Below the pieces are notes generated by a model. It made no database searches. It saw nothing but the letters and a program-made list of their open reading frames with translations, and was not told the origin of the DNA. Both the position numbers and the translations under genes were made by a program. A stretch of DNA of 64,000 nucleotides. Source: an uncultured archaeon (GTDB lineage: Archaea > Altiarchaeota > Altiarchaeia > IMC4 > SCGC-AAA252-I15). This document shows, piece by piece, positions 13,464-64,000 of this stretch. The number at the start of each line of letters is the position of its first letter. The first letter of the stretch is position 1. The stretch covers positions 10,278 to 74,277 of the forward strand of contig CAYREE010000002.1 of assembly GCA_964423225.1 (NCBI GenBank). Reading direction: 5' to 3'.

Positions 13464-13590
13464 TTTTCCCCATCTTCCCTTGATTTTTTTTAAATGTATT
13501 ATTACTGTTTATAACAGTGTAAAAAACGGTTTTACGGTTTTTTAACTTCACACCTATTCTTAACCCATATTCACTTATGAGGGATGTTTT

Positions 13591-14805: not shown

Positions 14806-14842
14806 GGACATTTTTATATGTCTCTTCCCACATTCTATCAAG

Positions 14843-15007: not shown

Positions 15008-15045
15008 GATAATCATGTTTTAATTCTTAAACCAATTTTAATATT

Positions 15046-16224: not shown

Positions 16225-16227
16225 ATT

Positions 16228-16551
16228 TTATTTATCAAGATCTTTAACAAGCTTTTTTAGATATTTTAATCCTTCATTAAGTGTTTTATGACCTGATTCA
16301 GTTATCTTATAATACTTTCTCTGTCTGTTGTCAATGAGCTTCCATTCAGTTTTCACATAGCCTTCAAGTTCTAGTCTGTAAAGGACCATGTATGCGGTTA
16401 CTTTACCGATCTCGAATCCGAACCGTTTTTCGACCTTTTCCTTGACTTCATATGCGTATACTGGTCCTTTTTCCATTAATGAGAGGATATAGACCCATAG
16501 TACATCAATAGTCGTCTTATCCTTCAGCCTTCTTAACGGTGGATTATCCAT
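16228..16551 (-). CDS. PadR-family transcriptional regulator
   Basis: 107 aa with a winged-helix PadR signature (VLSLMEKGPVYAYEVKEKVE...YMVLYRLELEGYV). Confidence 0.8.
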   Translation of the reverse strand: MDNPPLRRLKDKTTIDVLWVYILSLMEKGPVYAYEVKEKVEKRFGFEIGKVTAYMVLYRLELEGYVKTEWKLIDNRQRKYYKITESGHKTLNEGLKYLKKLVKDLDK

Positions 16552-16608
16552 TTTAGTAATATTTTATGACCGTGAAATATTTAAATACTAAATAACCTGT
16601 ATTATTAA

Positions 16609-50391: not shown

Positions 50392-51564
50392 CTATCTTCC
50401 TGATATTATCTTTATCACATCGCAGTCGGCTAGCACATGGTCTTTTCCTACCTTCTGCTTTGTGCGTGCGTCAACAGCTCCTATGAATTTTTCTCCTATG
50501 TCTGTATGAACCTTATATGCTAGGTCTAGGGCTGTCGAATCATTTGGCACTAGATATGAGTCTGGAAGCACCTTACCCTTCTTGTCTGAAAGCTTACCCT
50601 CGTTTTCAACAGGATAAACCGTTATTAGTCCAAGGACATCATATACTGCCTTATTAAGTGATTTTTGCACACCTGTCGAACCATGCTTCTCTAATATCTT
50701 AGTCTTAACGAATTCCATGGCCTTGGATTGTTTCTCAGTTAATTCTCCTTTTACTGTAAATTCCCCATCTCCTGGCACATACTCTATAAGCTCGTGAGCA
50801 TCCGCTTCACGTAATGCTAGTTCAGCTTCAGCACAGACAGGTATCATCTCATACTTTGCTTGTAGTCTATCAAAGTTATCCATTCCTAGATCTATTTTAT
50901 TTGCGGTAATTAGGATGGGTTTTGAAATCTGTCTCAAAACAATGGCGAACCTCATTATGTCTTCATCACTCCAATCCCTATTGTCTTCAAGTCTCGTCTT
51001 CTTCAATGCGTTTTTCACATGGCCTTCTGAAACCGATAATCCCGTTAAAATAGTTGTGAGCTCATCGACTAGCTTTGCATCTGCATGGACTATCTTCGAC
51101 TTGATCTTCTTCCAGTTCTTTCTGATGATTCCTGCAAACCAGTGATTCACCTCATCTTCAAGGAATTTTATATCCTCTTCTGGATCATGGTTTACACAAG
51201 CCTCTCCCAGCTCATCGGTTCTACCTGAAATATCGACTATATGGATTAATACATCTGCCTGCCTCAAGTCATCTAGAAACTGGTTTCCAAGGCCTTTTCC
51301 TTCATGTGCTCCTGGTACGAGTCCTGCAACATCTATGATCTTTATTGGTGTGAATCTGTTGCCTTTCTTGCATACGCTATTGTTTGGATTGCATTCAACA
51401 TTGAATTCGTTGCATGGGCATTTTCCACGCACATATCCAACCCCGATATTGGCTTTTATTGTCGTGAATGGAAATCCAGCAATTTCTGCGTCAGCTAGTG
51501 TTAATGCCTTGAAAAACGTTGATTTTCCAACATTTGGTTTCCCGACTACTCCTACTTCCATCAC
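50392..51564 (-). CDS. OBG-family GTPase (YchF/Ygr210-like) with C-terminal TGS domain and Cys-cluster insertion
   Basis: G1 GKPNVGKST, FPFTTI, G3 DVAGLV, NKID, and a TGS-like C-terminus. Insert CPCNEF..C..NNSVC. Confidence 0.65.
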   Translation of the reverse strand: MMEVGVVGKPNVGKSTFFKALTLADAEIAGFPFTTIKANIGVGYVRGKCPCNEFNVECNPNNSVCKKGNRFTPIKIIDVAGLVPGAHEGKGLGNQFLDDLRQADVLIHIVDISGRTDELGEACVNHDPEEDIKFLEDEVNHWFAGIIRKNWKKIKSKIVHADAKLVDELTTILTGLSVSEGHVKNALKKTRLEDNRDWSDEDIMRFAIVLRQISKPILITANKIDLGMDNFDRLQAKYEMIPVCAEAELALREADAHELIEYVPGDGEFTVKGELTEKQSKAMEFVKTKILEKHGSTGVQKSLNKAVYDVLGLITVYPVENEGKLSDKKGKVLPDSYLVPNDSTALDLAYKVHTDIGEKFIGAVDARTKQKVGKDHVLADCDVIKIISGR

Positions 51565-52652
51565 TTATTCCTCTCCCAATTATTTATAAATAATAGTAAG
51601 GCTGCTATTATGATTAACATCATTGAACCTGCTACAATAAGTGATTCGGTAGGATTTCTTGTTGGTAGGCTATTATAATAGATGAAGCCGTTTGTACTTC
51701 CAATAATGATCCTCTTATAATCTATCTTGGATGTTAGGATCCTACCCTTTGTATCCAAGTACCATCTTACCTCTCCTGTCGGGTCTGTAAGATAGAGTCT
51801 TTCATCGAGTGTTCCCGCAATCGTATGGAATCCATTAGTTGCCATTGAAGTGATTCCATCACTTAGTCTGATACTATACCTGAGTCCACCATCCCTGTGA
51901 AAGACTAAGAGTCGACCGTCTTTCAAACCTGCTAGTATTGTATTATCATGTGCTATTAATACTCCGATCTGATCATTGGTCCTATACCTCCATTTGAGGC
52001 TTCCATTATGATCGAATATAATTATGAAACCATTATTCAATCCGATGATAATGCCTTCATCATCGACAGTTGAAGTCCTGATTATATCCTCTACTCCAAA
52101 CTTTTTTATCTGTTTTCCATCCTGATCAAGTCTTATAACATCTCTGTCTGTTATAATAATTGTTTCATTCCCGATTATTGTAGCTGAGATACTATAACCT
52201 CCACTATTATACTCCCATAATGGATTACCGTTTCTATTAATACAGTAGACATTTCCAGTTGATGTGCCAATTATTATTCGATCAGCATTCATATCAACGG
52301 AGTCTGGAAATAATGACTGTTCTTCAAGATCTTTATCCCACATCATAAAACCCTCTAAGATAGAATAAATCCTACCGTCCATTGCCGATAAGATGATTCC
52401 TTCCTCATCAGCCTTTAAAGTATTGATTGTCGTGTTGATGGAGTAATTCCATAAAATACTGCCATTAAAATCTATCTTTGAGATCGTATTGTTGTATGCT
52501 ACAACAAATGCTTTATCTAGCATTTCAAGCGAAGTAACTCTAAGGCCTATAGGAATCTGCCAGTCAGGAATCTTCACTGTTTCCTGTGAATCAACAAGGC
52601 TTGTCCCAAGCGCTAGGATTATTATTATACTCGCCCATTTTTTTTGTAGCAT
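51561..52652 (-). CDS. Secreted PQQ-like beta-propeller repeat protein with C-terminal TM anchor
   Basis: Signal peptide, repeated DG-x-hydrophobic-W/Y blocks (PQQ-like repeats), and a C-terminal hydrophobic helix. Confidence 0.5.
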   Translation of the reverse strand: MLQKKWASIIIILALGTSLVDSQETVKIPDWQIPIGLRVTSLEMLDKAFVVAYNNTISKIDFNGSILWNYSINTTINTLKADEEGIILSAMDGRIYSILEGFMMWDKDLEEQSLFPDSVDMNADRIIIGTSTGNVYCINRNGNPLWEYNSGGYSISATIIGNETIIITDRDVIRLDQDGKQIKKFGVEDIIRTSTVDDEGIIIGLNNGFIIIFDHNGSLKWRYRTNDQIGVLIAHDNTILAGLKDGRLLVFHRDGGLRYSIRLSDGITSMATNGFHTIAGTLDERLYLTDPTGEVRWYLDTKGRILTSKIDYKRIIIGSTNGFIYYNSLPTRNPTESLIVAGSMMLIIIAALLLFINNWERNK

Positions 52653-52703: not shown

Positions 52704-52922
52704 ATGAAGCTAATAGATTTGGTGTCTCCGATCGGTATTTTGATTATCGGGACCTTTTTCCTGGCAATAGGTTATGTTATATTCAATAATTACCTAACTA
52801 TCTCAGAGGCAACTGCTTTATCAAAGGGTGTGGAATTCATTCAGATAGGATTGGTGATGATAGTCTTATCATTTGTTATGTCGTGTGTAGGACAAGTATT
52901 TCGTCTGTTGAAAATAATATAA
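52704..52922 (+). CDS. Small two-TM membrane protein (72 aa)
   Basis: Hydrophobic ORF with a bidirectional terminator downstream. Confidence 0.35.
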   Translation: MKLIDLVSPIGILIIGTFFLAIGYVIFNNYLTISEATALSKGVEFIQIGLVMIVLSFVMSCVGQVFRLLKII

Positions 52923-52976
52923 AAAAAAAGAGGGGTTTGTCCAGGTTTTATCCTGGACATTTGTGTTGTTGTTTTT
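52921..52976. terminator. Bidirectional hairpin terminator (stem tgtccagg/cctggaca) flanked by A-run (plus strand) and T-rich run
   Basis: 8-bp perfect inverted repeat at 52938-52959 with a 6-nt loop. On the minus strand it is followed by AAACCCCTCTTTTTTTTT, and on the plus strand by ttgtgttgttgttttt. Sits between convergent genes. Confidence 0.55.
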
Positions 52977-52979
52977 ACG

Positions 52980-53438
52980 CTATCCGCATATTCCTTCAAT
53001 CTTCTTAGTTCCCGTGAACTCGATTCCGGTAATAGCATTATCCCGGTCATCAAACACGAAAGCAACTTCTAGGGCATATGGCTGGTCTGCAACACATGCT
53101 GAACCAAGGTCGCGTTTTACTGTCTCGGTCTTACCTACTAATAATACTAGGTTTGCCGCCTCTGTTACCACTACTCCTGGATTACCAACAGTCATACTCG
53201 AGATAACAATCGTGTAGTCCTGATTGTTTCGTATCGTGAAATACGATACACCGCTTTCAACAACTTTCCAGTTCAAAATCCCCATTTCTGCTCCTCTCCA
53301 ATAGGATTTTGAGGCCTGGATTCCGGCTCCGGCTCCTATGTCTATAAATCCTCCTAATACCGTCACCACTATTAGCGCGACAATCACTACTACTGCGAGT
53401 ATCACGAGATACTCTGTGGATAATTGTCCTTTATCCAT
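52980..53438 (-). CDS. Archaeal type IV pilin-like protein with class III signal peptide (major pilin candidate 1)
   Basis: MDKGQLSTEYLVILAVVVIVALIVVTVLGG: KG-Q cleavage site followed by a hydrophobic helix. Strong SD TAGGAGGTGT upstream. 83% identical N-terminus to the paralog. Confidence 0.75.
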   Translation of the reverse strand: MDKGQLSTEYLVILAVVVIVALIVVTVLGGFIDIGAGAGIQASKSYWRGAEMGILNWKVVESGVSYFTIRNNQDYTIVISSMTVGNPGVVVTEAANLVLLVGKTETVKRDLGSACVADQPYALEVAFVFDDRDNAITGIEFTGTKKIEGICG

Positions 53439-53487
53439 GAAACACCTCCTATAGATTTATTCTATATTTTTATTATATGATTGTGTT

Positions 53488-53512
53488 AAAAAAAGAGGGG
53501 TTATTCCTGTTT
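53488..53512 (-). terminator. T-tract terminator after pilin paralog 2 (AACCCCTCTTTTTTT)
   Basis: Same CCCCTC-T7 motif as downstream of paralog 1, immediately 3' of the stop codon. Confidence 0.45.
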
Positions 53513-53983
53513 TTAGCAGGTTCCCTCTATTTTCTTAACGCCGTCAAACTTTAGGTCTGCGATAGTGTGGTCTACATCCGTGTATATCACACTAACGGCT
53601 GCTGCATATGGCGATCCTGCACTTCCTGCCGCACATGTGCTGATGTCCTGATTCACTGTCCTGCTTTGTCCTGGATTAAGTGTCAGAGATACCATTCCTC
53701 CACCTCCTCCTATCACTGTGACTCCATCCACTGTGAACGAAGTAATCTGGATTGTGTAATCCAGGTTGTTTCTCACCGTGAAGTAGGAACTACTGCCTGC
53801 TAATGCTACCTTCCAATTTAATAGTCCGATGTCTGCTCCTCTCCAGTAGGACTTTGATGCTTGCACACCTGCTCCTGCACCGATGTCTATGAATCCTCCG
53901 AGGACTGTCACGACTATTAAGGCTACTATGACAACGACTGCAAGGATGACCAAATATTCCGTTGATAATTGTCCTTTATCCAT
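53513..53983 (-). CDS. Archaeal type IV pilin-like protein with class III signal peptide (major pilin candidate 2)
   Basis: Identical first ~50 aa (MDKGQLSTEYLVILAVVVIVALIVVTVLGGFIDIGAGAG). SD GGAGGTGA sits 5 nt upstream. Confidence 0.75.
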   Translation of the reverse strand: MDKGQLSTEYLVILAVVVIVALIVVTVLGGFIDIGAGAGVQASKSYWRGADIGLLNWKVALAGSSSYFTVRNNLDYTIQITSFTVDGVTVIGGGGGMVSLTLNPGQSRTVNQDISTCAAGSAGSPYAAAVSVIYTDVDHTIADLKFDGVKKIEGTC

Positions 53984-54039
53984 TTTTCACCTCCCTTGGG
54001 TATATTGATTATTTATTTTTTTCCTTTATAACCCTTGTT

Positions 54040-54996
54040 TTACTGTATTTTTATGTAATATCTGATAGCGTAAAATACTATCAGTGTGATTGGCACTATT
54101 ATGATAGCGTACTTCAGCCCGTATTTTTCTTTTCCCTTGTTTATAACTCCGATAAGCAGGCTTGCGATAAATGATGTGCCGACTATTATTAATGTGGATA
54201 CGTTCATGAGGAATTCTATGCTGAATGTTTCTGCCATGAATAAACCGATCCCCATATTATTCACATCTGATATATTGAAATTGCTTTTCAACTCATTCAT
54301 CCTCTCTGTGAAGTGTATGGACACGTTCATCAATACTGGCATTCCAACGACTATGGTTAGTAGGATGAGTATAGTGTATGTCCTTGTGCTTGATATGAGT
54401 TGTCTTCTAAGCATCAGGTTCTCATTGATGTCTCTCGCGGTTTCTTCTAGTATCTTGGCTAAGTAGCCGCCGGATTCGATGCTTCTTATGAATAGTTTTA
54501 TTGATCTTTCAAGTACTGGAAGTCTTATATTCTGGTTTATCTCCATGAGTGCACTGGAAAAAGATTCTGTCCCCAAGGCTTTTGTAGTTGCTTTATCAAG
54601 CTCTTCTTTTAATACACCAAATTCCTCTCTTGCTGATATCTTCATTGCCTGATATGGGGTCATACCTGCCCTGACATTGGATGCCATTAGTTGTAGAACG
54701 CTTGGAAGCACTTCTTCAACGGCTTCCCCCCTCTTTTCGGCTATGAAAAATGGTATTGAGTATGCTCCAACCAGATAGACTATGAACATCACGAATGCTA
54801 ATACGTGAAATAGCAGTGGTTCTCCGTATCTTCCTATATACTCGGTGACAAGTGCTACTAATACAGAGTATAACAGGCTTTTACCCAACCAGACTTCTGC
54901 CTCCACATTCATGCCTGCAAATTTGATCATGTCAGCCATATTCTCTACCATTGTTCTGGGGTAGAGCCTTGATAATGCTATGTAGAATCGTCTCAT
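54040..54996 (-). CDS. Pilus/T2SS platform protein, T2SS-F domain (TadC-like)
   Basis: T2SSF domain (LQLMASNVRAGMTPYQAM...LERSIKLFIRSIESGGYLAKILEE) plus TM helices. The start is set at the Met 2 nt after the upstream stop; the track's longer basic N-terminus is out-of-frame overlap. Confidence 0.65.
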   Translation of the reverse strand: MRRFYIALSRLYPRTMVENMADMIKFAGMNVEAEVWLGKSLLYSVLVALVTEYIGRYGEPLLFHVLAFVMFIVYLVGAYSIPFFIAEKRGEAVEEVLPSVLQLMASNVRAGMTPYQAMKISAREEFGVLKEELDKATTKALGTESFSSALMEINQNIRLPVLERSIKLFIRSIESGGYLAKILEETARDINENLMLRRQLISSTRTYTILILLTIVVGMPVLMNVSIHFTERMNELKSNFNISDVNNMGIGLFMAETFSIEFLMNVSTLIIVGTSFIASLLIGVINKGKEKYGLKYAIIIVPITLIVFYAIRYYIKIQ

Positions 54997-54998
54997 CG

Positions 54999-55883
54999 TT
55001 AAACGTATACTACCGGCCTCCTGCTTTTTATGAATTCCATTAGTGCTATTTGTACGAAAAAGCATACTGGGATCATTATGTAGAATATTTTTGGGCCTAG
55101 TTCGACTCCGAGGAATGGTCCTAGGACTATTATTAGTGTTGTTGCGATTGTTGGCATGACTACTGCGAAGAGCATGTATATTAGTACCATTACATTGAGT
55201 TCTTGGGCATAGTTTCTGATCTTCATTTTTTGTTCCATTGTCAGGTCTTTTACGAGTTCTCTTAGTATGCCTTCTAGGCTTGATCCTGATTTTAATGCGT
55301 TTATTATCTGCCATACGCTGTTTTTAAGGTGTTCGCTTCTTGTGTGTATGGCTAGTTCTTCTAGTGCGTCTTCTACTGGTACTCCAACATTGGCTTTTTT
55401 CACGACTTTTGCTATCTCATGGGATATGCTGCCGTATCCTGAGTGGGCTACTTCTGTTAGGGCTGTGTATGCTGATGCTCCTGAACTGACTTCTAATAGC
55501 ATGTCTTTTAGTGCGAAAACAAGGTCTCTGTCGATTTGTTCTGCTTTTTTTCCGGCTAGGATTCCGGGGTATGATAATAGTACGAATAGGAATAATCCTA
55601 GGATCAGTGTGAATACCATTAGGGTCATGGAAATTACTTTTTGTTGTTCTGTGCCTACCGCTGTCATTAGCGTGTATATTAGTCCGCCAACAAGTAGTGC
55701 GGTGAATAATGCGGATAGTATTGAGGCTCCTACATAGTCTTCAGCACCTACATCAAGGTCGGTTTCCATCAAGTCTATCCTAAGCTTAGGATATACTGCC
55801 ATGAGCTTGTGCCATAGGTTATTCCATTTACTTGTTAACCGTATCCCCACTCTTAGGGGTATCAACATTAGTGGTACTTCCAT
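54999..55883 (-). CDS. Pilus/T2SS platform protein, T2SS-F domain (TadB-like)
   Basis: T2SSF domain (LKDMLLEVSSGASAYTALTEVA...ALEELAIHTRSEHLKNSVWQIINALKSGSSL) plus TM helices. Confidence 0.65.
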   Translation of the reverse strand: MEVPLMLIPLRVGIRLTSKWNNLWHKLMAVYPKLRIDLMETDLDVGAEDYVGASILSALFTALLVGGLIYTLMTAVGTEQQKVISMTLMVFTLILGLFLFVLLSYPGILAGKKAEQIDRDLVFALKDMLLEVSSGASAYTALTEVAHSGYGSISHEIAKVVKKANVGVPVEDALEELAIHTRSEHLKNSVWQIINALKSGSSLEGILRELVKDLTMEQKMKIRNYAQELNVMVLIYMLFAVVMPTIATTLIIVLGPFLGVELGPKIFYIMIPVCFFVQIALMEFIKSRRPVVYV

Positions 55884-55890
55884 CGGTATT

Positions 55891-58800
55891 CTATTCCTTC
55901 TTTTTCTTTCCTAGACCCAACATGGACTTTATTGTCGGGCTCATCCTTTTTGCGAATAATTTGTTTAATGCTGAGTCTTTTTTCTCTTCTGGTTTTAATG
56001 GGATTTCAGTGTCTGAGACTGGTTTATCTTCTTTAGAGTCTTCGGCACTGGTTTTTTCCTCTTCTATCGCGTGTTCTAATATTTCCTCGGGTTTTATCGT
56101 GTCCTCGTCCGCTATTGCGAATGGAGAAGGCTGTAAATCAGGTTTTTTCTCTTCTTCTTGGATTGTTATCTGTGGATCTTCTGGTTCTTCTGGCATAGTA
56201 TCAAACAATGATTTTGCTCTCGTTGACATGGGATCATCTTGAAATGGTTCTTCTTTCTCCTCGGGTATTTCAGGTTCTGGTTTTATTATCTGGTCTGTTT
56301 GCTCTTCTACTTCATCTTGTCCTATCATTGCCTTCATTGTCGGACTCATTTTATCATCGAATATTTTGTCTAATTTTGTTTTGTCTTGTAGTTTTGTATC
56401 TTCTTCAACAGGCTCTTGGATTTCTTTTTTAGTTTCTTCTTGTATTGATTTTTCAGTTGTTGGTTCGGGTTTTTTCACTGGTTCTTTTTCCTGTTCACTT
56501 GAACCCATCATCGCCTTCATGGTTGGACTCATCTTTTCTGCGAATGGATCGTCAAATCGAGGGTCTTTCGGGCCATCGAAGACTTTTTTATATGGTTCAA
56601 CTTCTTCTTTTGATGTTTCTGGTTCTTGAGTCTCTGTGACCTCAAGTTTTTTGTCTGGAATCTCTTGGACTATCTGTGATTCTGGTTCTAATGCTTCTGG
56701 TCCGGTTTGTTCAGGAGTAGTTTGTGTTTCTTCTGTGATTGATGATCCTGGATCGATTTCTTCTGCTGCCAGGGGTTGTGGTTCGGTCACATCTTGTGGG
56801 AGTAATTCGGGTTTTTGTTCTATATCTGCTGTTTGTTTATCTAGTTCCTCTATTTTTTCTTCTTCTAACGGTGTTTTTTCCTCGGTTTGTTGTGCTATTT
56901 TTGGAGGTTCAATAATTCGATGTTTCTTTGGGTCTCTTTCCTTGATTTCTTCGATGGTTATTTTACCTTCTATCACTTCCTTTAGTTGTTCCTTGTTCTT
57001 GTAGTATAATTCCATGACTTCGCCGACTTCTTCAAGACTTCGATTATTGTTTTCATACATCCAGATCAATGTCTTCTTCTTTTCCTCTAAGTCTTTTAGG
57101 ATTTCCGGCCGACTCATTCCTGTATGTAGTGATAAATCCTCTAATACTCGGACGCTATCATTTACTTTTACGAACTCGTCAGTCCTTGTATTGTATCTGA
57201 ATAGATAATTTAGTTCGAATTCTTTGCCCTCGCTTCCAGGGCGTATCTCAGCTATCTCGAATACTTTTCGGGCACCTTTTTTCCGGTCCCTGTATACGAC
57301 TATCATCAAGTGCAGTGCCTCTATCTCAGCGCTTGGTAATGCTATTGGGGGTTCTAAAAGCCTTCTTTTAAGATTATGGACCGTATCTGCGTGAATTGTA
57401 CCATAGACACTGTGTCCTGTATGCATTGCCTCGAATAATACCTCGGCTTCACGCCGTCTTCTTATCTCTCCTAAGACTATCCTATCTGGCCTCATCCTTA
57501 GGGATGTCACTATCAGGTCGAGCATGCTTACTTCTCCCTTGCCTTCTGGATTAGCTTCTCTTGTCGTTAATGGGACCCAGTTCCATTTTAGGTAGCTTGG
57601 AAGATTGATTTCTCGAGTGTCTTCAATGGTTATGACTCTGTGTGTGGGTTGTATTAGTGAGCATAGGCAGTTTAACATGCTTGTTTTTCCTGATGCTGTT
57701 CCGCCTCCAACGATTACGTTTAGTTCGTATTGGAATGCTAGCCAGAGGAATGCGCCCATTTCTGGGGACATTGTGCAGATGTCTGGGCTTACGAAGTGTG
57801 CTATCGTCCATGGTTGTCTTGCGAATTTTCTGATAGTGATTGTGTTTCCAAAGTTTGATATCGGGAATAATGTCGCGTTTACCCTGTCTCCTGAGAGTAG
57901 GTGTGCGTCCATTATTGGATCCATGTTTGTTATATCTCTCTCGACTTTTCTACCTATCTGTGCAGCGTAATTGTATACCATCCGTTCATCGTCTAGGTGT
58001 AGTGTGGTCTCGACCCATCCGAATCTTTTATGGTATGCTGTAAGGGGGATGTGGCTGGTATTGATGCATACTTCTTCAAGCCAATCATCAGTCATTAGTA
58101 GTTCCATGTCTCCGAGACCGTACATTGAATGGGTCATCATTCCGGCAAGCATGTTCAAGTCGTCTTCATCTAATCTGATTTCTGAGTCTATGAGGTCTTT
58201 TGCTTCGGTGAAGAACGTTTCTTTTAACTCCCTCATCTTTTTTGTATCGGACATGTCTCCTACCCCAACTTCTATCTTTCCGCTTAACGCGTCTCTGAGC
58301 GATGTAATTAGGCTTCTTGTTCCAACTCCTATTATGGGCAGTGTCACCTCGTATATTGGTTTTGCCTTCTGGTCGCTTGCTATGATCTTGACGTGTGCTA
58401 CGACCTTGTCTGCAACGATCTTATAGCTGTCGAGGGTTTTACCCGTTATGTTAGTATCTGGGTCGTCTAGGGATACGGGTTTTGCAAGTGTCATCATAGG
58501 TTCTTTTAATAAATTGGATGGGTAGTCGAGTTTGAGTATATCTAGTGTTCTCGCCCATTTTTCGATCTTTTTAGGCTCTGTATTAGAAACGATCGCTGCG
58601 TCTGCGAGAGAGAGGTATTTACTCCTTGATAATGCTTCGATTAGGTAGTCTACTTGGGTGAATATTATCCTTTTTTCTCTGCTTTTTTCCGATATCTTCT
58701 CCTTTATTCTTTGACGCAGTATCCTTGGCTTGTTCCCTATTATGACTCCTTTTTTATTGATTTTTAGAAGTTCTTCTCTTTCGAGGATATGAGACCATTC

Positions 58801-59151
58801 TTCTATTTGTGTTGAAGTAGTCTCGAGTTTTTCAGCCGCCTCAAACACACTGATGCTTCCTTCTTGTTCCATTAGTTCAAGGAGATTTTCCTTGTTTATA
58901 CCAAACAAGCATCTTGATATGAGTTTATCTGTTGCAGAAATCTTTGGTGGACGAAGGAATCTCTTCACAACTTTTATCTGTCCTTGGTCTTCCAGTTTTT
59001 TAATGGTTTTTTTAAAATCTCTTTTACTTGCTTTAAATCTTTTTGCAGTCCTTTTAGCTTTGACAGTCCCCCTTGCCCTGATATGTCGGATCAGGGCCTG
59101 TGATAGTATGCCCCTTTCTCTTATCAACCCTGCTTTGTCCTTCAAGCCCAT
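55891..59151 (-). CDS. Type II/IV secretion-system ATPase (VirB11/TadA/FlaI family) with long N-terminal region and about 420-aa acidic repeat-bearing C-terminal tail
   Basis: Walker A GGGTASGKTS, ITIEDTREI, Walker B/Asp box RMRPDRIVLGEIR, His box HTGHSVYGTIHA. The tail is E/K/P-rich with MSPTMKAM repeats. Confidence 0.8.
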   Translation of the reverse strand: MGLKDKAGLIRERGILSQALIRHIRARGTVKAKRTAKRFKASKRDFKKTIKKLEDQGQIKVVKRFLRPPKISATDKLISRCLFGINKENLLELMEQEGSISVFEAAEKLETTSTQIEEWSHILEREELLKINKKGVIIGNKPRILRQRIKEKISEKSREKRIIFTQVDYLIEALSRSKYLSLADAAIVSNTEPKKIEKWARTLDILKLDYPSNLLKEPMMTLAKPVSLDDPDTNITGKTLDSYKIVADKVVAHVKIIASDQKAKPIYEVTLPIIGVGTRSLITSLRDALSGKIEVGVGDMSDTKKMRELKETFFTEAKDLIDSEIRLDEDDLNMLAGMMTHSMYGLGDMELLMTDDWLEEVCINTSHIPLTAYHKRFGWVETTLHLDDERMVYNYAAQIGRKVERDITNMDPIMDAHLLSGDRVNATLFPISNFGNTITIRKFARQPWTIAHFVSPDICTMSPEMGAFLWLAFQYELNVIVGGGTASGKTSMLNCLCSLIQPTHRVITIEDTREINLPSYLKWNWVPLTTREANPEGKGEVSMLDLIVTSLRMRPDRIVLGEIRRRREAEVLFEAMHTGHSVYGTIHADTVHNLKRRLLEPPIALPSAEIEALHLMIVVYRDRKKGARKVFEIAEIRPGSEGKEFELNYLFRYNTRTDEFVKVNDSVRVLEDLSLHTGMSRPEILKDLEEKKKTLIWMYENNNRSLEEVGEVMELYYKNKEQLKEVIEGKITIEEIKERDPKKHRIIEPPKIAQQTEEKTPLEEEKIEELDKQTADIEQKPELLPQDVTEPQPLAAEEIDPGSSITEETQTTPEQTGPEALEPESQIVQEIPDKKLEVTETQEPETSKEEVEPYKKVFDGPKDPRFDDPFAEKMSPTMKAMMGSSEQEKEPVKKPEPTTEKSIQEETKKEIQEPVEEDTKLQDKTKLDKIFDDKMSPTMKAMIGQDEVEEQTDQIIKPEPEIPEEKEEPFQDDPMSTRAKSLFDTMPEEPEDPQITIQEEEKKPDLQPSPFAIADEDTIKPEEILEHAIEEEKTSAEDSKEDKPVSDTEIPLKPEEKKDSALNKLFAKRMSPTIKSMLGLGKKKKE
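55918..56544 (-). repeat. Four in-frame copies (one degenerate) of a motif of about 14 aa, [FL]-x-[DEK]-[KR]-MSPT-[MI]-K-[AS]-M-[MIL]-G, in the ATPase tail
   Basis: DNA repeats ...ccttcat.gt.gg.ctcat... at about 55918-55965, 56321-56365 and 56503-56544, with a degenerate copy (DPMSTRAKSLFDTM) at about 56180-56247. Confidence 0.7.
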
Positions 59152-59152
59152 T

Positions 59153-59359
59153 TTACTTGATCTTATATGATTTTAATAATTTCACATATAGATTGTAGTC
59201 CTTCGATTTTGCGAATTTTTCAATATCCTCATCGTCTAGTTTCCCTAGTAAGTTGTCAAGGACTTTTAAAATTCTCCTAACCTCCCCTTTGCTAAGTGTT
59301 TCTCCGGTACTTTCCCTCGGAATCAATGCGTCGAGTCCTTTTACCTTTTCTTCGACCAT
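59153..59359 (-). CDS. Small hypothetical protein (68 aa) between ParA-like and ATPase genes
   Basis: Tightly packed ORF (0-1 nt spacers on both sides), charged and helical. Confidence 0.4.
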   Translation of the reverse strand: MVEEKVKGLDALIPRESTGETLSKGEVRRILKVLDNLLGKLDDEDIEKFAKSKDYNLYVKLLKSYKIK

Positions 59360-60316
59360 TTATATCAACTTATCTGCTATCTTCATGTATGCTGTACTAG
59401 CCTGAGCGTCTGGGTAAAGATCTATTATTGGTTTACCTTGTGCAGATGCTTCACTCACCTTAATATCTCTGTCTATCATGATGTCAAATACTGTTTCTTT
59501 TAGATAGTTCTTTACCTCAGCCATTATCTTGTTTGAAAACTCTGAGTTGGGTTCATGCATTGTTAGTATTGCCCCATCGATATGTAGTCCTGGATTAAGT
59601 CTGTCTCTCACAAGTTCGATAACCTTCATGAATGTTGTGAGGCTTTCAACAGCGAATTGGTCTGACTGGACTGGTATTAGGACAGAATCAGCTGCTGTAA
59701 GAGCATTGATTGTAAGTAGGCTAAGTGATGGTGGGCAATCAATTATTATAAAATCATATTTTTCTCTTAAGGGCGTTAACACATCGTTTAAACGATTTTC
59801 CCTCCCTTTTAAACCCATTAATTCCACTTCCATTCCGACAAGATTTACTTCAGATGGAACGAAATCAAAGTCGAAGTCTGTTGTTACAATGCTTTCTTCG
59901 ATCGGGGCTGTTAATGAGAGTATGTCATATGTATTGCATTTCACTTCTTCTGTATGTCCTAGTAGGCTTGATGCATTGGCTTGTGGATCAAGGTCAACAA
60001 GAAGAACTTTTTTATCCAGTTTTGCCAGGCAGGATGATATATTAATTGAAGTAGTTGTCTTTCCCACTCCGCCCTTATGGTTGGAGACACTGATTATCTT
60101 GCAGTTGCCTGGTTTTTCAGGAAGCTTACCTGTTTTTGATATACGATAGTCTACAAAAAGTGGTTTTCTAACCTTTAAGTATCCTTCTTTCTGGAGTTCT
60201 TTACAGTGTTTTATCAGTGTTTTCTTGTCTAATTCAAGTTCTTTTACGAGGATGTGAGCTTTAACTTCTCCAGTGTTCGGAATCTCCCTGAGGATCATTA
60301 ATTGTAATGGGTCCAC
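59360..60316 (-). CDS. ParA/MinD-family ATPase with N-terminal winged-helix domain (TadZ/CpaE-like position in pilus operon)
   Basis: Deviant Walker A KGGVGKTT and DLDPQAN. About 75-aa N-terminal wHTH-like region. GTG start (or ATG at Met7). Confidence 0.7.
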   Translation of the reverse strand: MDPLQLMILREIPNTGEVKAHILVKELELDKKTLIKHCKELQKEGYLKVRKPLFVDYRISKTGKLPEKPGNCKIISVSNHKGGVGKTTTSINISSCLAKLDKKVLLVDLDPQANASSLLGHTEEVKCNTYDILSLTAPIEESIVTTDFDFDFVPSEVNLVGMEVELMGLKGRENRLNDVLTPLREKYDFIIIDCPPSLSLLTINALTAADSVLIPVQSDQFAVESLTTFMKVIELVRDRLNPGLHIDGAILTMHEPNSEFSNKIMAEVKNYLKETVFDIMIDRDIKVSEASAQGKPIIDLYPDAQASTAYMKIADKLI

Positions 60317-60376
60317 TTTTTAAAAAGTTACTATTATACTAATTACTCCTAAGAGTTTATATAATATAATTTTTTT
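60317..60376 (-). promoter_or_regulatory. Candidate promoter for pilus assembly operon (TATA-like AGTATAATAG about 25 nt upstream of start; likely leaderless)
   Basis: AT-rich 60-nt spacer with TTATATTATATAAA and GTATAAT elements, no SD, and the start codon within about 25 nt of the TATA-like element. Confidence 0.35.
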
Positions 60377-61360
60377 TTATTGGCAGCAGCAGGTATCGGC
60401 CTGCGGCCCGCCCTTACAATATACATCTCCCTCAGTTTCGTGTGTGCCACCCCCTGGGCAAACACTGTTTTGCTTACAACTACCCCCAGCATAGCCTTTT
60501 ATTCCACAGACTTTTTCACATTCTCCTAAATCTATTTGTGGTGTTAGCCATATAGCATCTTTTCTATATATATTATCCTTGAATTCCACGCTAATATTGC
60601 TTCTAATACCTACGATTGGGATGTCTTCCATGATAATTCTTGTTTCAACCTCTCCTATTGTATTTCCCTGTTTGGATAGGACAATTGAGTAGTCATGGTT
60701 ACTTCCATCTATACTGTTTCTGCCCACGTTGATAAAAACCTTTCCAGTCGTGAAATTCAATGTCAATTGAGAGTTACCTGAAGGATTGACGAAGTATGTG
60801 TCTTCAAAACCCATATTAGAGAACGAGCCATTCAATAGGATGCGCTTACTGCCTCCCTGTGTCTCATCCACGACATTTACTAGGTTCATATCATAGTCGA
60901 AATATAGTTCATATGCATAGATTTCAGAATCCCCGGTCTTATTATATATTCTGATATAATCCTTGTTGTATGAGTTATAACCATATATCAATGGTGTTGG
61001 TTCTAGTGTAAATTCAGGATTATTCAGGCCAGATAATATTATTTCTGAATACACCCTGCTAGAATACTGGTTCTCAATGAAGTTCTTATATTCATTTAAC
61101 TGGGTTATTCCCCCAGCCAGCGGAAACCCATCTTTTACTGAGACTACAGTACGTCCTGAATCATAATACACCCTTGCATTTATCCCTAGTATATCTTCAA
61201 GATCAGTTGCAATGTCGGCAAATACTGTCCTAGTCTTCTCTGAGTATATATCCTCCTTCACTCCGACTTTGACATAATATGTTGCCAGTGAAAAAACACT
61301 TAATACTAGCATTAGACAAAGAATTGAGAAGAGCAGGCCTCTATTATTCATCTTAACCAC
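60377..61360 (-). CDS. Pilin-like or secreted protein with class III-type signal (NNRG-LLFS) and Cys-rich C-terminus
   Basis: N-terminal RG followed by a hydrophobic helix. The C-terminal 60 aa hold 11 Cys (CEKVCGIKGYAGGSCKQNSVCPGGG...CCCQ). Confidence 0.5.
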   Translation of the reverse strand: MVKMNNRGLLFSILCLMLVLSVFSLATYYVKVGVKEDIYSEKTRTVFADIATDLEDILGINARVYYDSGRTVVSVKDGFPLAGGITQLNEYKNFIENQYSSRVYSEIILSGLNNPEFTLEPTPLIYGYNSYNKDYIRIYNKTGDSEIYAYELYFDYDMNLVNVVDETQGGSKRILLNGSFSNMGFEDTYFVNPSGNSQLTLNFTTGKVFINVGRNSIDGSNHDYSIVLSKQGNTIGEVETRIIMEDIPIVGIRSNISVEFKDNIYRKDAIWLTPQIDLGECEKVCGIKGYAGGSCKQNSVCPGGGTHETEGDVYCKGGPQADTCCCQ

Positions 61361-61728
61361 ACTCTTGCCTCTGATATATATCTTTCACTGTCTTTTATGA
61401 ATGAGCGTCTTGATATAGCGTATTCGCCCTCCTCACATCCACTGTCTTCAATAAATATTACAATGTCGTTTGAGTCTATGATCTTGATTTCAAGACATAT
61501 CTTTTGTGGTAGCGTTGCTTTTAGCTCATAGAGTTTCGTTGTATCGCCGACAGTAAGCCGTTCAAGCCCTGCATTCTCGTCTAATATTGCTAGTAAGTCG
61601 GTGGATAACTGATAAACATATTCTCTGCTAGGGTATTTTGGAGCGGAAAAAAGGAATATGCTCGCACTTATTATTACTGTTGCCATTGCCAGGGCTACTA
61701 ACGCATCCAAAGTGAATATTCCTGTCAT
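61348..61728 (-). CDS. Minor pilin-like protein (class III signal-like N-terminus)
   Basis: MTGIFTLDALVALAMATVIISASIFLF. Confidence 0.45.
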   Translation of the reverse strand: MTGIFTLDALVALAMATVIISASIFLFSAPKYPSREYVYQLSTDLLAILDENAGLERLTVGDTTKLYELKATLPQKICLEIKIIDSNDIVIFIEDSGCEEGEYAISRRSFIKDSERYISEARVWLR

Positions 61729-61739
61729 ATCATTTCTCC

Positions 61740-62261
61740 TTAAGTTGTCATAAATGAGTCTTCTGGAAAGTATACTCTAACTCCTACCTCGACTATAGTA
61801 TCGTTTAATAATCCATATCTGTTCATGATGACCATTGGCCTGTTTGTTGGTTCTCCGATCTCGTATAATACGGGTAGTGATGAGTTTTGTATGTCTGTCA
61901 CGGTTATATGAACATCCTCTTTAGTGAGTCCGAGAATCTTTGTAAGGTTTTCATATGTTATTTCCCCTGCCTTCTCAAGCTTTGATGCGTCTAGTATGTT
62001 ATCCCTTTTTGCAAATCCTATCGTGCTAACATATCTTGCATCTATACTGTCTAGTGTCTGCCATTCCGCAGGCATTCCCGGTGTTTTGATGAGTAGTTCA
62101 GAGACTTCTAGGGCTTTTCTGTCGAGTGATCTTTTGTCATTGAATTTGAATATCTTTGTTAGGCCTAGCGTCCATACTTCCATTGTTGTAAGTAGTATGA
62201 GTAGTACTAGTGTGAATGCGACTGTCAGGTCTATGGTGGATATCTGGCCTTTTTTAGACAT
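61740..62261 (-). CDS. Minor pilin-like protein (class III signal peptide KKG-QIS)
   Basis: MSKKGQISTIDLTVAFTLVLLILLTTM, the canonical archaeal prepilin N-terminus. Confidence 0.55.
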   Translation of the reverse strand: MSKKGQISTIDLTVAFTLVLLILLTTMEVWTLGLTKIFKFNDKRSLDRKALEVSELLIKTPGMPAEWQTLDSIDARYVSTIGFAKRDNILDASKLEKAGEITYENLTKILGLTKEDVHITVTDIQNSSLPVLYEIGEPTNRPMVIMNRYGLLNDTIVEVGVRVYFPEDSFMTT

Positions 62262-62664
62262 TTTCCACCCATAACTTGTTTTCTTTGAATGTGATTATGA
62301 CTTTTCCGGGGTTCACGTCTATATAGCTTCCTCCCTCGATTTGTGCTGGTAGGATCCCTGTGGCTTGTATCTTCTGGGTACCGCTATATGCTAGGTAAAT
62401 GGATTTGGGATAGACTCTTAGTGTGAATGATCGCCCTCCTTCAAATGACTCGGGTATATAGATCGTCCTGTTTGATCCTTCTCCTGCTAGATATACTGAG
62501 TTTATTGCTATTGCAAGGTTTTCTATGAGTACTTTAGAATCTACTCTGTTGACTACTTCTGTCCGCATCCTTTCTTGGGCTGTTATAGTATTTATCAATA
62601 GGATGAATAGTGATAGCGCGACTCCGATAGCAATCAAAAAGTCTATCGCAACCTGTGACTTCAT
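62254..62664 (-). CDS. Minor pilin-like protein (class III signal-like KS-QVAIDF)
   Basis: MKSQVAIDFLIAIGVALSLFILL. Confidence 0.5.
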   Translation of the reverse strand: MKSQVAIDFLIAIGVALSLFILLINTITAQERMRTEVVNRVDSKVLIENLAIAINSVYLAGEGSNRTIYIPESFEGGRSFTLRVYPKSIYLAYSGTQKIQATGILPAQIEGGSYIDVNPGKVIITFKENKLWVENV

Positions 62665-62699
62665 ATGTTAAATATACTCGGCTATATATAGAAATATGA

Positions 62700-63302
62700 C
62701 TACTCTGTGATGCATCCTGACCCGCCTATTGTGAATGATCTTCCAGTAATCCGCACGGTCTTTGTTTTCACTTCGTTGGTTGGTTCTCCTGTTCTACTTG
62801 GTTCTTTTCCTGGTACTACTCCTATTGGATTTTCTTTTATCTTGACTTTTTTTACGACGTATCCGTTAGGGTAGTATTCTTTCAAGTATTCTTCTGGCTT
62901 CTTCATTGTGCAGTAGGAGTTTTCCAGTGGTTCTATACCGCATTCTCGGATTCCTTCCACCATCTTCAAGTCTGCTGGGGCTGCGTTATTGAATGCATTT
63001 ATTATATGGTAGGCGTGTATCCCGTCCTTGGAGTAGACGAAGGCGTCTGATGTGGGTGAGAATAATATGATTTTCTCTCCACTGTCTACTACGGCGTATG
63101 GATCCCTTCCTATTAATTCTTCGAGTGTAACCATTGGATCGGTTTTTATCACTCCACGTGGCTGTGGGTAAGTGTCTTGGTAATCTGGTTCAGTTTGTGC
63201 TGATCCAGGCATCCTTATGTATCCTGTTACTACACCCAGGATTAGGATAATGATTATGCCTAATATCATCCATTTCCCGTCTTCTTCTATATCCAGGTCC
63301 AT
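62700..63302 (-). CDS. N-terminally anchored extracellular protein (200 aa) in pilus locus
   Basis: Single N-terminal TM (WMILGIIIILILGVVTGYI) followed by a soluble domain. Confidence 0.4.
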   Translation of the reverse strand: MDLDIEEDGKWMILGIIIILILGVVTGYIRMPGSAQTEPDYQDTYPQPRGVIKTDPMVTLEELIGRDPYAVVDSGEKIILFSPTSDAFVYSKDGIHAYHIINAFNNAAPADLKMVEGIRECGIEPLENSYCTMKKPEEYLKEYYPNGYVVKKVKIKENPIGVVPGKEPSRTGEPTNEVKTKTVRITGRSFTIGGSGCITE

Positions 63303-64000
63303 TTAATTGTATCTTACCCTCACTTGTATGTCTGTCATCGTCCATTGGTCTGATGATATCCCTGTTTCATCGCAGTCCGTGGTTTCAAGCGATACTTTCA
63401 AGTTGTGTGCGCCTGGATTCAGCTTATTGCCTGAACTTGTTATCGGGACGATGATGGGGTTGCCTGTATTGGTTGTCTCATCCATTATAAGCTCGTTGTC
63501 CCACCAGATGCAGTGGTGTTCTCCGTCAATCCAGTCATTGGGATTGAAGTGGAGTTCTCCTAGGAATGGTGTTCCAGTATATGTTAAGTCTACTTGGACG
63601 GTCTTCGGATTCTCAAAACATGTTCCCGATCCACCTAATTCAAGCTCAAGGTATGGTTCGCAAGTACCTGTTCCACATGGATTTGCACAGGTTCCACCCA
63701 TTCCATAATACTCGGTCCAGGGATTTAGAGCGCTATTCAGGTCTTGTCCTGTCCAGGACGCGTAGAAGCTGCCGGTGGTTGGTACTTGATTAGGATCTGT
63801 TATGTCTATGCACTGCCATACATCTATGCTGTTGCTGGTCCGGGTTGCCTCTCCTATCTGCCCTCCAGGAAAGCTTGATACGCCTGCCCATCCGCAGGTT
63901 AGGCTTGATTCTTTATATATCCTGGATGTATGACTTGCTCCAAATGAGTCGACGTTTTGTATTCGTCCGCATATTTTTGCCGAGGCTATATTGTTTCCTG
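63303..64000 (-). CDS. C-terminal part of a larger secreted Cys-containing protein (frame open to window end)
   Basis: Hand translation upstream of the listed Met shows no stop through 64000 (...SNSIDVWQCIDITDPNQVPTTGSFYASWTGQDLNSALNPWTEYYGMGGTCANPCGTGTCEPY...). Confidence 0.45.
   Translation of the reverse strand, partial: GNNIASAKICGRIQNVDSFGASHTSRIYKESSLTCGWAGVSSFPGGQIGEATRTSNSIDVWQCIDITDPNQVPTTGSFYASWTGQDLNSALNPWTEYYGMGGTCANPCGTGTCEPYLELELGGSGTCFENPKTVQVDLTYTGTPFLGELHFNPNDWIDGEHHCIWWDNELIMDETTNTGNPIIVPITSSGNKLNPGAHNLKVSLETTDCDETGISSDQWTMTDIQVRVRYN

Follow-up and report, generated by a model that had tools for sequence, protein, structure and literature searches.

A ParA-type ATPase and a ParB-like mini-protein in front of the motor gene of a predicted Altiarchaeota type IV pilus operon

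What might a ParA-type ATPase be doing in the middle of an archaeal pilus operon? The question is raised by a gene cluster at one end of a 64,000-nucleotide (nt) stretch of DNA from an uncultured archaeon of the Altiarchaeota (contig CAYREE010000002.1; the whole stretch is called the window below), in which genes for a predicted type IV pilus enclose a gene for a ParA-family ATPase with an N-terminal winged helix-turn-helix (wHTH) domain and an open reading frame (ORF) for a protein of only 68 residues. ATPases of the ParA/MinD family are known to serve cargoes as different as flagella, archaella, chemoreceptor arrays, carboxysomes and Tad pili, and the origin of such a coupling is rarely visible in sequence. 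In this uncultured phylum, known for its elaborate surface appendages, the coupling seems readable: the partner appears to keep the peptide of ParB, the ParA keeps the matching pocket, and the pair fronts a motor that has a wHTH in common with the ParA, which makes the locus a testable example of adaptor evolution. The answer that we favour, with reasonable though by no means full confidence, is that the region would be the assembly operon of an adhesive Altiarchaeota type IV pilus in which a module derived from ParA and ParB positions or licenses the motor.

The cluster extends from position 52980 to the window edge and comprises 13 genes arranged head to tail, all on the minus strand (Table 1). 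Their 5'-to-3' order is Cys-rich gene, g200, g136, g173, g126, g327, ParA, 68-residue ORF, ATPase, T2SSF_1, T2SSF_2, pilin A and pilin B; the same strand and order had been given in the original prediction, a model's reading of the letters of the window, and the ORFs between 52980 and 64000 bear them out. By homology, the core machine is recognisable as prepilin substrates, a hexameric FlaI/GspE/CpaF-type motor and two single-T2SSF proteins that together correspond to one FlaJ/PilC-type platform, and in this core the cluster is an ordinary type IV pilus operon, of an archaeal type that occurs DPANN-wide. The ParA gene and the 68-residue ORF, on the other hand, look like a module that was inserted, in one Altiarchaeota sub-lineage, between the minor-pilin block and the motor gene.

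Judged by its similarities, the ParA is a Soj-type chromosomal ParA of bacterial type, equipped with an N-terminal wHTH. In Pfam it matches AAA_31 (205 bits) and CbiA/ParA, with a weak MarR/HTH_24 match, and its AlphaFold2 (AF2) model, with a predicted local distance difference test (pLDDT) score of 91, shows a canonical winged helix ahead of a ParA fold. Among structures in the PDB, M. xanthus ParA (8RAY) scores 210 bits and the Soj proteins of Thermus and H. pylori about 158-160, while archaeal MinD reaches about 85 and FleN about 40; no TadZ structure is among the sequence matches at E <= 1e-5. Identity as a TadZ/CpaE or as a MinD of the arCOG00589 type was considered and rejected on this pattern (160-210 bits for Soj/ParA against about 85 for MinD and about 40 for FleN). 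Past a handful of full-length Altiarchaeota-type proteins, the database matches are to bacterial ParA/Soj, at 45-50% identity and over the ATPase domain only, and the closest bacterial Soj homologue sits in a gidA-gidB-noc-soj-spo0J neighbourhood. The Walker A motif is canonical (KGGVGKTT), and both K81GGVGKT87 and R283 are invariant in the alignment; R283 lies at the position of the PRN motif and is, we take it, the arginine with which Soj binds DNA non-specifically. Six hydrophobic residues of M. xanthus ParA have been shown to form the pocket for the ParB peptide (PMC12462528), and all six are conserved here, V164, L198, L200, I203, L235 and L240 corresponding to M. xanthus V116, L150, L152, L155, L187 and L192 (numbering of that study; offset checked on 17 residues).

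A protein of this kind could also still be a chromosome-segregation protein. One alternative, which we consider unlikely, is that the wHTH-ParA and its 68-residue neighbour make up a minimal partition system for a chromosome or replicon lodged inside the pilus operon, with the ParA on DNA, possibly at a specific site through its wHTH in the manner of type Ia ParAs, the small protein a degenerate ParB and the pilus genes passengers. It draws on the identity of the ATPase domain to true chromosomal Soj, on the intact DNA-binding arginine and ParB pocket and on the wHTH of the ParA, which is basic (net charge +2 to +7). A search of the locus for repeats returned only the pilin duplication (D1), repeats in the ATPase tail (D2), two terminator-like elements (D11) and short matches at chance level; no parS-like repeat stands out among them, which speaks against a partition locus.

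Much of the answer turns on the 68-residue protein, which we read as a remnant-like ParB partner in which the ParA-activating peptide seems to have been kept and the remaining ParB replaced. Its N-terminus (MVEEKVKGLDALIPRES) can be set beside those of the mini-proteins in related loci (L001, SRGLDELIPKES; L003, VLGKGIRALIPER; such labels are our own) and of metagenomic ones (P0247, NKGLNALIPRK; P0248, NRGLDALIPER; P0250, VLGKGLDALIPQK; P0257, VLGRGLDALIPPK), and the motif [KR]GL[DN]ALIP is conserved in all six of these as well as in L006. The Spo0J encoded beside the closest bacterial Soj homologue starts LPKKALGKGLSALIPIEED, and its motif ALGKGLSALIP matches the mini-protein; in M. xanthus the ParB motif reads L11-G-R13-G-L15-x-x-L18-I19, and about half of all ParBs have lysine at the central position (PMC12462528). 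For a partition system the partner would be oddly reduced: the mini-proteins are 59-70 residues long, the 68-residue protein has no match to ParB_N or HTH_ParB, and the ParB/Srx, HTH and dimerisation domains are missing.

Behind the peptide, the mini-protein has a C-terminal domain of the PF27359 type (consensus VRkvLkilDeLLgkLpdedvekFakSkdyelYvKlLksY), a family for which a match is precomputed for the 68-residue protein. A word-indexed homologue search with that protein found only the protein itself; an exhaustive HMMER search gave 144 cluster representatives, proteins of 41-1359 residues in almost all of which the domain is C-terminal. Such domains also occur near pilus ATPases in other DPANN lineages, again a poor fit to a mere partition system: in three further DPANN loci one is encoded 85 to 1633 nt upstream of the pilus ATPase gene, for example on a 599-residue coiled-coil protein (L017, 85 nt) and on a 230-residue membrane protein (L011, 411 nt). 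In the third (L029, 7460-9102), the domain lies on a 304-residue membrane protein with a KKLFGFIPIKR stretch, followed by a MinD-like gene and then by the ATPase gene (1633 nt off); here, for a second time and independently, a pilus locus pairs a PF27359-type domain with an ATPase of the ParA/MinD family. As a separate observation, about ten stretches of a 1359-residue protein of a Bacilli bacterium (P0245) match the domain, which therefore is not specific to archaea or pili and can be tandem.

The motor itself provides the link between the module and the pilus. Its ATPase begins with three wHTH domains (residues 3-73, 87-139 and 166-222; AF2 pLDDT 80-93 in this region and 83 for residues 1-730), and the first of them, wHTH1, is 34% identical over 62 residues to the wHTH of the ParA (E = 1e-6); the two are, to judge from this similarity, paralogues. 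How this domain is distributed was followed in a survey of the best 80 genome loci together with loci obtained by exact protein look-up, in which ORFs were called and searched with phmmer seeds from the window. The nearest named relatives of the ATPase belong to Candidatus Altiarchaeota (47-69% identity), and farther ones, at 43-53%, to Micrarchaeota, Iainarchaeota/Diapherotrites, Woesearchaeota, Aenigmatarchaeota and Nanohaloarchaeota; across these phyla, about 80 DPANN loci repeat the layout g136-g173-g126-g327-(accessory slot)-ATPase-T2SSF_1-T2SSF_2-pilin(s). Related loci whose ATPases are 47-69% identical have their genes in the same order, and chance does not account for the cluster. The ATPases themselves fall into 730-residue forms with wHTH1-3 and 670-residue forms with wHTH2-3, and most of those from DPANN have wHTH3 only or none.

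The ParA and the mini-protein are present in every one of the eight examined contexts with wHTH1, namely the window, L001, L002, L003, L006, L090, L093 and P0004/P0124 (the last counted as one context, a shared contig being inferred from the 7101-nt contig listed for both). The order ParA, 68-residue ORF, ATPase is kept in all seven related loci, with spacings from 29 nt (L001) to overlaps of 11 nt, even in L090, where the ParA is merely 44% and the motor N-terminus 30% identical. The two closest loci without wHTH1 have neither ParA nor mini-protein, and there the minor-pilin block abuts the ATPase gene; near one of them lie genes for a KaiC-like ATPase, for response regulators and for PAS kinases. 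The ParA with its mini-protein is likewise missing from about 74 other DPANN loci, and their slot holds a KaiC-like ATPase, a MinD-like one with a C-terminal amphipathic helix, or nothing. Chance adjacency of the ParA gene, a possibility that the original prediction had left to be checked in orthologous loci, was thus considered and dropped: the gene is present in the Altiarchaeota orthologues, has been kept in eight contexts and varies together with wHTH1 in the motor. That the pair always lies beside a pilus ATPase in the eight contexts recovered, and is missing exactly where the motor has no matching wHTH1, also counts against a free-standing partition system, and in our view the alternatives considered here fit this co-variation less well than positioning or licensing by the ParA does. 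More generally, ATPases unrelated to one another (KaiC-like, MinD-like and Soj-like) have repeatedly come to occupy the accessory slot of DPANN pilus loci. In L091, a close relative that does not have the ParA (3598-4518 and 12148-17429), the locus is flanked by three or four receiver-domain proteins, a KaiC-like ATPase and two large sensor proteins with PAS domains, of which one has histidine-kinase domains and the other a receiver domain, which suggests a different regulatory solution for the same pilus core.

The winged helices invite another reading. Type Ia ParAs such as P1 ParA and F SopA bind their operator through an N-terminal wHTH. Likewise, the wHTH-ParA might mainly be a transcriptional regulator of the pilus operon, with an operator before its own gene, the mini-protein as co-regulator and no role in positioning, a proposal to which we assign a low probability. 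The MarR/HTH_24-type matches and the confident winged-helix model are in keeping with it, as is the AT-rich spacer of 60 nt with TATA-like elements directly upstream of the ParA gene, which may be an internal promoter; moreover, wHTH regulators of arCOG01057 are linked to MinD-like genes (Makarova 2016, PMC4858521). A purely operator-binding role is hard to reconcile, however, with the presence of the same wHTH at the N-terminus of a membrane-associated motor ATPase. The repeat search also turned up no convincing inverted repeat or operator in the locus, and the conserved ParB pocket together with the ParB-type peptide points to an ATPase cycle driven by a partner.

With three wHTH domains on the motor, the first of them carrying a net +19 in the window protein, and with a ParA of the DNA-binding type, one might also think, instead of an adhesion pilus, of a device for DNA handling or for secretion, perhaps a competence-type pseudopilus or a DNA transfer apparatus, whose wHTH domains and nucleoid-binding ParA bring DNA to the membrane complex. 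There is a precedent in the ParA-like VirC1 at a type IV secretion system (PMC11407121). Still, we regard this as very improbable. The charge of wHTH1 is lower in relatives and only 0 to +5 in several, the ORF list and Pfam gave no gene for a nuclease, a ComEC-like channel or a relaxase in the locus, and a surface fibre is the better match both for the two pilin genes of the abundant type, each with its own promoter and putative terminator, and for the large adhesin-like first genes of relatives.

Returning to a ParA module that positions or licenses the pilus motor, we envisage the following sequence of events. A prepilin peptidase with its gene elsewhere would cut the pilins; the four minor pilins would start the fibre and cap it, and the large surface proteins encoded upstream would serve as adhesins. 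ATP-bound ParA dimers would sit on the nucleoid, or at a DNA site through the wHTH, and the N-terminal peptide of the mini-protein would engage the ParA pocket and stimulate the ParA ATPase; its C-terminal domain would engage the motor, creating a bridge between ParA and motor, and the ParA-type cycle could thereby set the number, position or timing of pilus machines. The sequences themselves show conservation on both sides of the ParA-peptide interface, the domain that ParA and motor have in common and a strict co-occurrence; which proteins touch each other, what the cargo is and what the wHTH domains do, we infer from them. More tentatively, and at a level of belief that stays short of even, we propose that a ParABS system was dismantled and re-used, with a ParB peptide joined to a small motor-binding domain and the same wHTH placed on ParA and motor, giving pilus positioning or licensing referenced to the nucleoid or to a DNA site. 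If true, the locus would represent an evolutionary intermediate in which ParA-family cargo adaptors arise directly from ParB, and would offer a way, not dependent on TadZ, to a 'TadZ-like' function.

Several points weigh against this picture. It is through gene neighbourhood alone that the mini-protein's C-terminal domain is tied to the pilus ATPase, and PF27359-type domains are widespread as the C-terminal module of many unrelated-looking proteins, bacterial ones included, which leaves room for a partner other than the pilus motor. Degenerate forms of the N-terminal motif occur in L002 (NKGVKAFL) and L093 (GEGLKALF), and P0244 has a weaker one; no Peptidase_A24 match was found within 10 kb in five relatives, and the ParA could, as discussed above, act in chromosome segregation. 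Finally, a pilus has not been observed for this organism.

Set against known positioning systems, the ParA module would be a functional analogue of TadZ/CpaE, FlhG and MinD4 with an independent evolutionary origin. The concept of a ParA/MinD ATPase with an activating-peptide adaptor is the same as in MinD4 of Haloferax volcanii archaella, FlhG/FleN of flagella and ParC/PpfA of chemoreceptor arrays (review PMC11407121). Those ATPases, however, are of the MinD type with a membrane-targeting helix, whereas the one here is of the Soj type and predicted to bind the nucleoid; in addition, the adaptor here is a recognisable N-terminal fragment of ParB, and ParA and cargo motor have a wHTH in common. 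Bacterial ParABS, as in Soj-Spo0J and in M. xanthus (PMC12462528), is close in its ParA (45-50% identical, pocket and arginine kept) and in the LG(R/K)GLxALI-type motif at the N-terminus of ParB. It differs in that its ParB has a ParB/Srx CTPase domain, an HTH and a dimerisation domain, where the partner here has a PF27359-type domain of 45 residues, and in that the ParA here has an extra wHTH and the pair lies inside an archaeal pilus operon in which no parS is seen.

The ParA had originally been placed in the slot of TadZ/CpaE, as a hint to the archaeal ancestor of bacterial Tad pili. The position stands; the TadZ/MinD type does not, given the resemblance to Soj and chromosomal ParA. Bacterial Tad loci (cpaE/tadZ - cpaF/tadA - tadB - tadC) do have the same order of ParA-family gene, motor and two platform genes, but TadZ, which forms a polar hub, joins a receiver-like domain at its N-terminus to an atypical ATPase of the MinD/FleN type with an atypical Walker A, in contrast to the canonical Soj with wHTH and ParB-peptide partner found here. 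Furthermore, the locus has no secretin, no TadD/RcpB-type gene and no pilin of Flp size, and its ATPase, unlike that of Tad, has the archaeal C-terminal helical domain also found in afGspE. Since the ParA is confined to one Altiarchaeota sub-lineage and the slot is otherwise KaiC-like, MinD-like or empty, it is uninformative on the Tad ancestor, and it offers no evidence for an archaeal ancestry of TadZ. FleN/MinD ATPases in such loci have already been described (Makarova 2016, PMC4858521; Denise 2019, PMC6668835); the expectation that a ParA with a wHTH would be new to archaeal systems of this kind holds within the literature that we searched.

Table 1. Features of the predicted pilus cluster in window coordinates, given in the direction of transcription
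Feature	Position	Strand	Basis or remark
First gene, 3' part; Cys-rich, probably secreted protein	63306..64000	-	no stop for at least 231 codons up to 63998
g200, 200 residues, single N-terminal membrane anchor	62700..63302	-	ORF; without Pfam family
g136, minor-pilin-like, signal MKSQ/VAIDFLIAIG	62254..62664	-	class III motif
g173, minor-pilin-like, signal KKGQ/ISTIDLTVAF	61740..62261	-	class III motif
g126, minor-pilin-like, signal MTG/IFTLDALVAL	61348..61728	-	resembles bacterial G/FTLxE motif
g327, largest minor-pilin-like protein, signal NNRG/LLFSILCL	60377..61360	-	position-conserved family
AT-rich spacer with TATA-like elements, 60 nt, ahead of ParA gene (putative internal promoter)	60317..60376	-	sequence reading
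wHTH-ParA, 318 residues: winged helix (residues 3-61) and Soj-type deviant-Walker-A ATPase (residues 72-318)	59360..60316	-	
68-residue 'mini-ParB': N-terminal ParA-binding-type motif KVKGLDALIPRES and C-terminal PF27359 (TP_0179)-type domain of about 45 residues	59153..59359	-	
ATPase N-terminal region, three tandem winged-helix domains	58486..59151	-	AF2 model
ATPase core: N-terminal domain, RecA-like C-terminal domain and C-terminal helical domain	56962..58485	-	Pfam T2SSE
ATPase C-terminal extension, 356 residues, acidic, low-complexity	55891..56961	-	without Pfam family
Platform protein 1 (T2SSF_1), 294 residues, single T2SSF domain	54999..55883	-	Pfam 1.3e-16
Platform protein 2 (T2SSF_2), 318 residues from ATG 54996, single T2SSF domain	54040..54996	-	Pfam 8e-19
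Major pilin A, 156 residues, signal MDKGQ/LSTEYLVILAVV	53513..53983	-	Class_IIIsignal near threshold
Second copy of oligo-T terminator-like element, after pilin A	53488-53515	-	repeat D11
Major pilin B, 152 residues	52980..53438	-	tandem paralogue of pilin A, 62% identity
Oligo-T terminator-like element CCCCTCTTTTTTTTT after pilin B	52923..52950	-	repeat D11, putative terminator

The genes of the cluster are closely packed. Measured with the corrected start of T2SSF_2 at 54996, the spacers in the upstream part are 3 nt (first gene/g200), 35 (g200/g136), -8 (g136/g173), 11 (g173/g126), -13 (g126/g327) and 60 (g327/ParA), and those in the downstream part 0 (ParA/68-residue ORF), 1 (68-residue ORF/ATPase), 7 (ATPase/T2SSF_1), 2 (T2SSF_1/T2SSF_2), 56 (T2SSF_2/pilin A) and 74 (pilin A/pilin B). 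An identical CCCCTCTTTTTTT element lies behind each of the two pilin genes, and its oligo-T stretch makes it a putative terminator in both places; each pilin gene also has its own AT-rich TATA-like box and a Shine-Dalgarno-like sequence. Pfam and NCBIfam together recognise T2SSE, two T2SSF domains, AAA_31/CbiA/ParA, the weak MarR/HTH_24 and, near threshold, Class_IIIsignal in both pilins, and give no match for the four minor-pilin-like proteins (except for Defensin_2 in the tail of g327), the 200-residue protein, the first gene or the ATPase tail. Scans of the window for tRNA genes and Rfam families gave no matches, and no ORF elsewhere in it has a class III signal beyond those of the cluster. 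With secretion ATPase motifs, T2SSF platform genes and subunits with class III signals (Class_IIIsignal just below cutoff), the locus has the marks of the type IV filament superfamily.

At 1086 residues, the motor ATPase is unusually long. Its core matches Pfam T2SSE (2.7e-29) and, in the PDB, afGspE (202 bits), FlaI (170) and CpaF (148), and its alignments show the Walker A, Asp box, Walker B and His box. An archaellum was considered as an identity for the locus and set aside: the FlaI model of NCBIfam gives 251 bits against a cutoff of 550 (a TadA-family model gives 162), the platform is split, and no genes for FlaH, FlaF/G, FlaCDE/FlaX or archaellins are found at the locus. A query-anchored comparison with three solved references only, A. 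fulgidus GspE (afGspE), S. acidocaldarius FlaI and C. crescentus CpaF, gave identities of 36.6%, 36.5% and 34.5%, respectively, over 296 shared positions. In this set afGspE and FlaI are 42% identical to each other, and a four-point test on the same references pairs them, leaving the window protein with CpaF. The window protein has RMRP(D/E)RI in common with CpaF, as well as a TRxxNxEGxG loop without the two-residue deletion of GspE and FlaI, and it keeps a C-terminal helical domain of the afGspE type. Taken together, these features are compatible with a placement on the Epd/Tad side of the tree. The C-terminal tail, which is missing from the 730-residue relatives, is rich in Pro, Glu and Lys and repeats a motif like F(D/A)xKMSPTMKAM(M/I)G in three clear copies and one degenerate one, the last copy standing at the very C-terminus before KKKKE; as a side observation, this motif could be a short linear motif that binds the membrane or a partner.

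The platform is encoded by two genes with a single T2SSF domain each, as the original prediction had it. A longest ORF of 424 residues for the second protein was discarded as an artefact of the start assignment. In NCBIfam, the first protein aligns with the N-terminal half of the models (FlaJ positions 7-248 of 555, UpsF 50-245 of 484) and the second with the C-terminal half (FlaJ 405-550, UpsF 281-461); the two are 24% identical to each other, and the pair fits the pattern expected from a collinear fission of a two-domain platform. PDB sequence searches with both proteins gave no matches. Two platform genes are the rule among the 80 DPANN relatives, with only a few exceptions, and since the same core occurs in about 80 DPANN loci, the split is a family-wide trait and not a peculiarity of this locus. 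Many clade 2 loci, too, have two tadC genes (Makarova 2016, PMC4858521), and two platform genes occur in system 1 and in some loci of DPANN subsystem 4A (Sivabalasarma & Albers 2026, bioRxiv 10.64898/2026.04.22.720090). As a marker of Epd, the split platform consequently fails, being found in clade 2 and subsystem 4A as well as in nearly all of the relatives. For annotation, the type IV pilus loci of DPANN can be taken to have, as their standard layout, a conserved four-gene minor-pilin block together with a split platform.

The two major pilins score 21.5 and 20.0 bits with Class_IIIsignal, below its cutoff of 23.7. Their motif [KR]GQ/LSTEYLVILAVV is nevertheless conserved in dozens of loci, and across the family the N-termini are nearly invariant, [KR]-[GA]-Q/x-[ST]-T-E-Y-L-[IV]-I-L-A-V-V; pilin orthologues across DPANN are 147-181 residues long. 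As in EppA-dependent pilins, these signal peptides belong to the Q(+1) DUF361 type. No multi-transmembrane or hydrophobic GxGD protein that could be a prepilin peptidase is encoded in the 64-kb window, and the earlier expectation that the A24 peptidase lies outside it agrees with the ORF list; the gene may lie elsewhere in the genome.

These traits bear on the kinship with Epd and Tad that had been proposed from the architecture. In the literature, clade 1 (Epd) loci combine two TadC genes and several minor pilins with EppA and with a FleN/MinD ATPase that belongs to arCOG00589 (PMC4858521), and Epd-like and Tad systems have in common a split platform, short pilins and a TadZ-like protein (PMC6668835). 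The split-platform architecture brought up at the outset is therefore real but neither new nor diagnostic, as the literature already describes it. Like the Epd locus of M. maripaludis (clade 1, system 1), the cluster has two adjacent single-T2SSF genes by the ATPase gene, several minor pilins, Q(+1) DUF361/Class_IIIsignal pilin signals and an accessory P-loop NTPase beside the motor. The differences are equally clear: EpdE-type pilins have about 70 residues, and the short pilins of the Epd/Tad clade (Flp/EpdE-like, about 50-75 residues) are without a globular domain, whereas those found here have 152 and 156 residues and a globular part; EppA is encoded in or near Epd loci but is found neither in the window nor in the 10-kb flanks of relatives; the accessory NTPase of Epd is FleN/MinD (arCOG00589) or FlaH-like rather than a Soj-type ParA with wHTH; and three N-terminal wHTH domains on the ATPase are unlike Epd. 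A reading of the locus as the Tad/Epd ancestor thus agrees with the architecture and the type of signal peptide, and disagrees with the size of the pilins, the nature of the ParA and the lack of EppA nearby. Similar, too, are the DPANN pilus loci L004, L005, L012, L029 and L091, among others, which have an orthologous core, pilins of 147-181 residues and near-identical signals and N-terminal helices, and differ in having KaiC-like, MinD-like or no NTPases and ATPases with wHTH3, wHTH2-3 or none.

Upstream of the ParA gene, five or six pilin-like or secreted genes had been predicted. Four families (g136, g173, g126 and g327) do have class III signals, each with its own conserved motif; of the remaining two proteins, one is membrane-anchored and one secreted and Cys-rich. 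Across DPANN loci, g136 homologues conserve the Q at +1 and the D/E at +5 of the N-terminal motif; g173 homologues are encoded at the corresponding place in many DPANN loci and have retained the KGQ motif. The signal of g327 has no acidic residue at +5, and in this it presumably resembles the bacterial capping minor pilins GspK and PilX. A homologue of g200 is seen only in L006 among the annotated DPANN loci. The first gene, which had been taken as an ORF of 132 residues, is in fact open to the edge (63306-63998, at least 231 residues), and for this reason the cluster must extend past 64000. Its homologue in L006 has 231 residues and a Sec-type signal; the corresponding position is occupied in L002 and L005 by large adhesin-like proteins of 583 and 797 residues with class III signals, and in L001 by a 638-residue signal-anchor protein followed by a 250-residue class III-signal protein.

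Two side observations concern the minor pilins. Across DPANN the g126 family has the N-terminus G/(I/F)(F/V)(T/I)LDA, nearer to the bacterial G/FTLxE than to the Q(+1) motif of the operon, so that either one peptidase with two classes of cleavage site or two peptidases would be at work. In addition, the C-terminal stretch of about 50 residues of g327 (window 60380-60535, minus strand) is a Cys-rich, defensin-like extension, in which residues 276-301 match the arthropod Pfam family Defensin_2 at 20.9 bits (cutoff 20.4); the closest g327 orthologues, of 273-276 residues, are without it.

Downstream of the pilins, a 363-residue PQQ/BamB-like beta-propeller protein with an N-terminal signal and a C-terminal membrane anchor is encoded at 51561-52652 on the minus strand, and its gene adjoins that for a 72-residue two-helix membrane protein (52704-52922, plus strand). 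The position of this pair is kept in the Altiarchaeota loci L001, L002, L006 and L087 (inverted in L003) and not in other DPANN loci; the two proteins may be surface partners of the pilus, or their position may simply reflect lineage synteny. Farther away, a predicted cytoplasmic protein of 1817 residues (30772-36225, minus strand) and an adjacent 362-residue ORF have no Pfam match (E <= 1e-3 for the former), and the idea of a hamus-like surface protein was abandoned for the larger one, in which neither a signal peptide nor domains were found. Lastly, at 1661-5266 on the minus strand the window encodes a 1201-residue archaeal Hel308-like DEAD-box helicase (Helicase_dom4_arc, HHH_5), split by an intein with a LAGLIDADG homing endonuclease.

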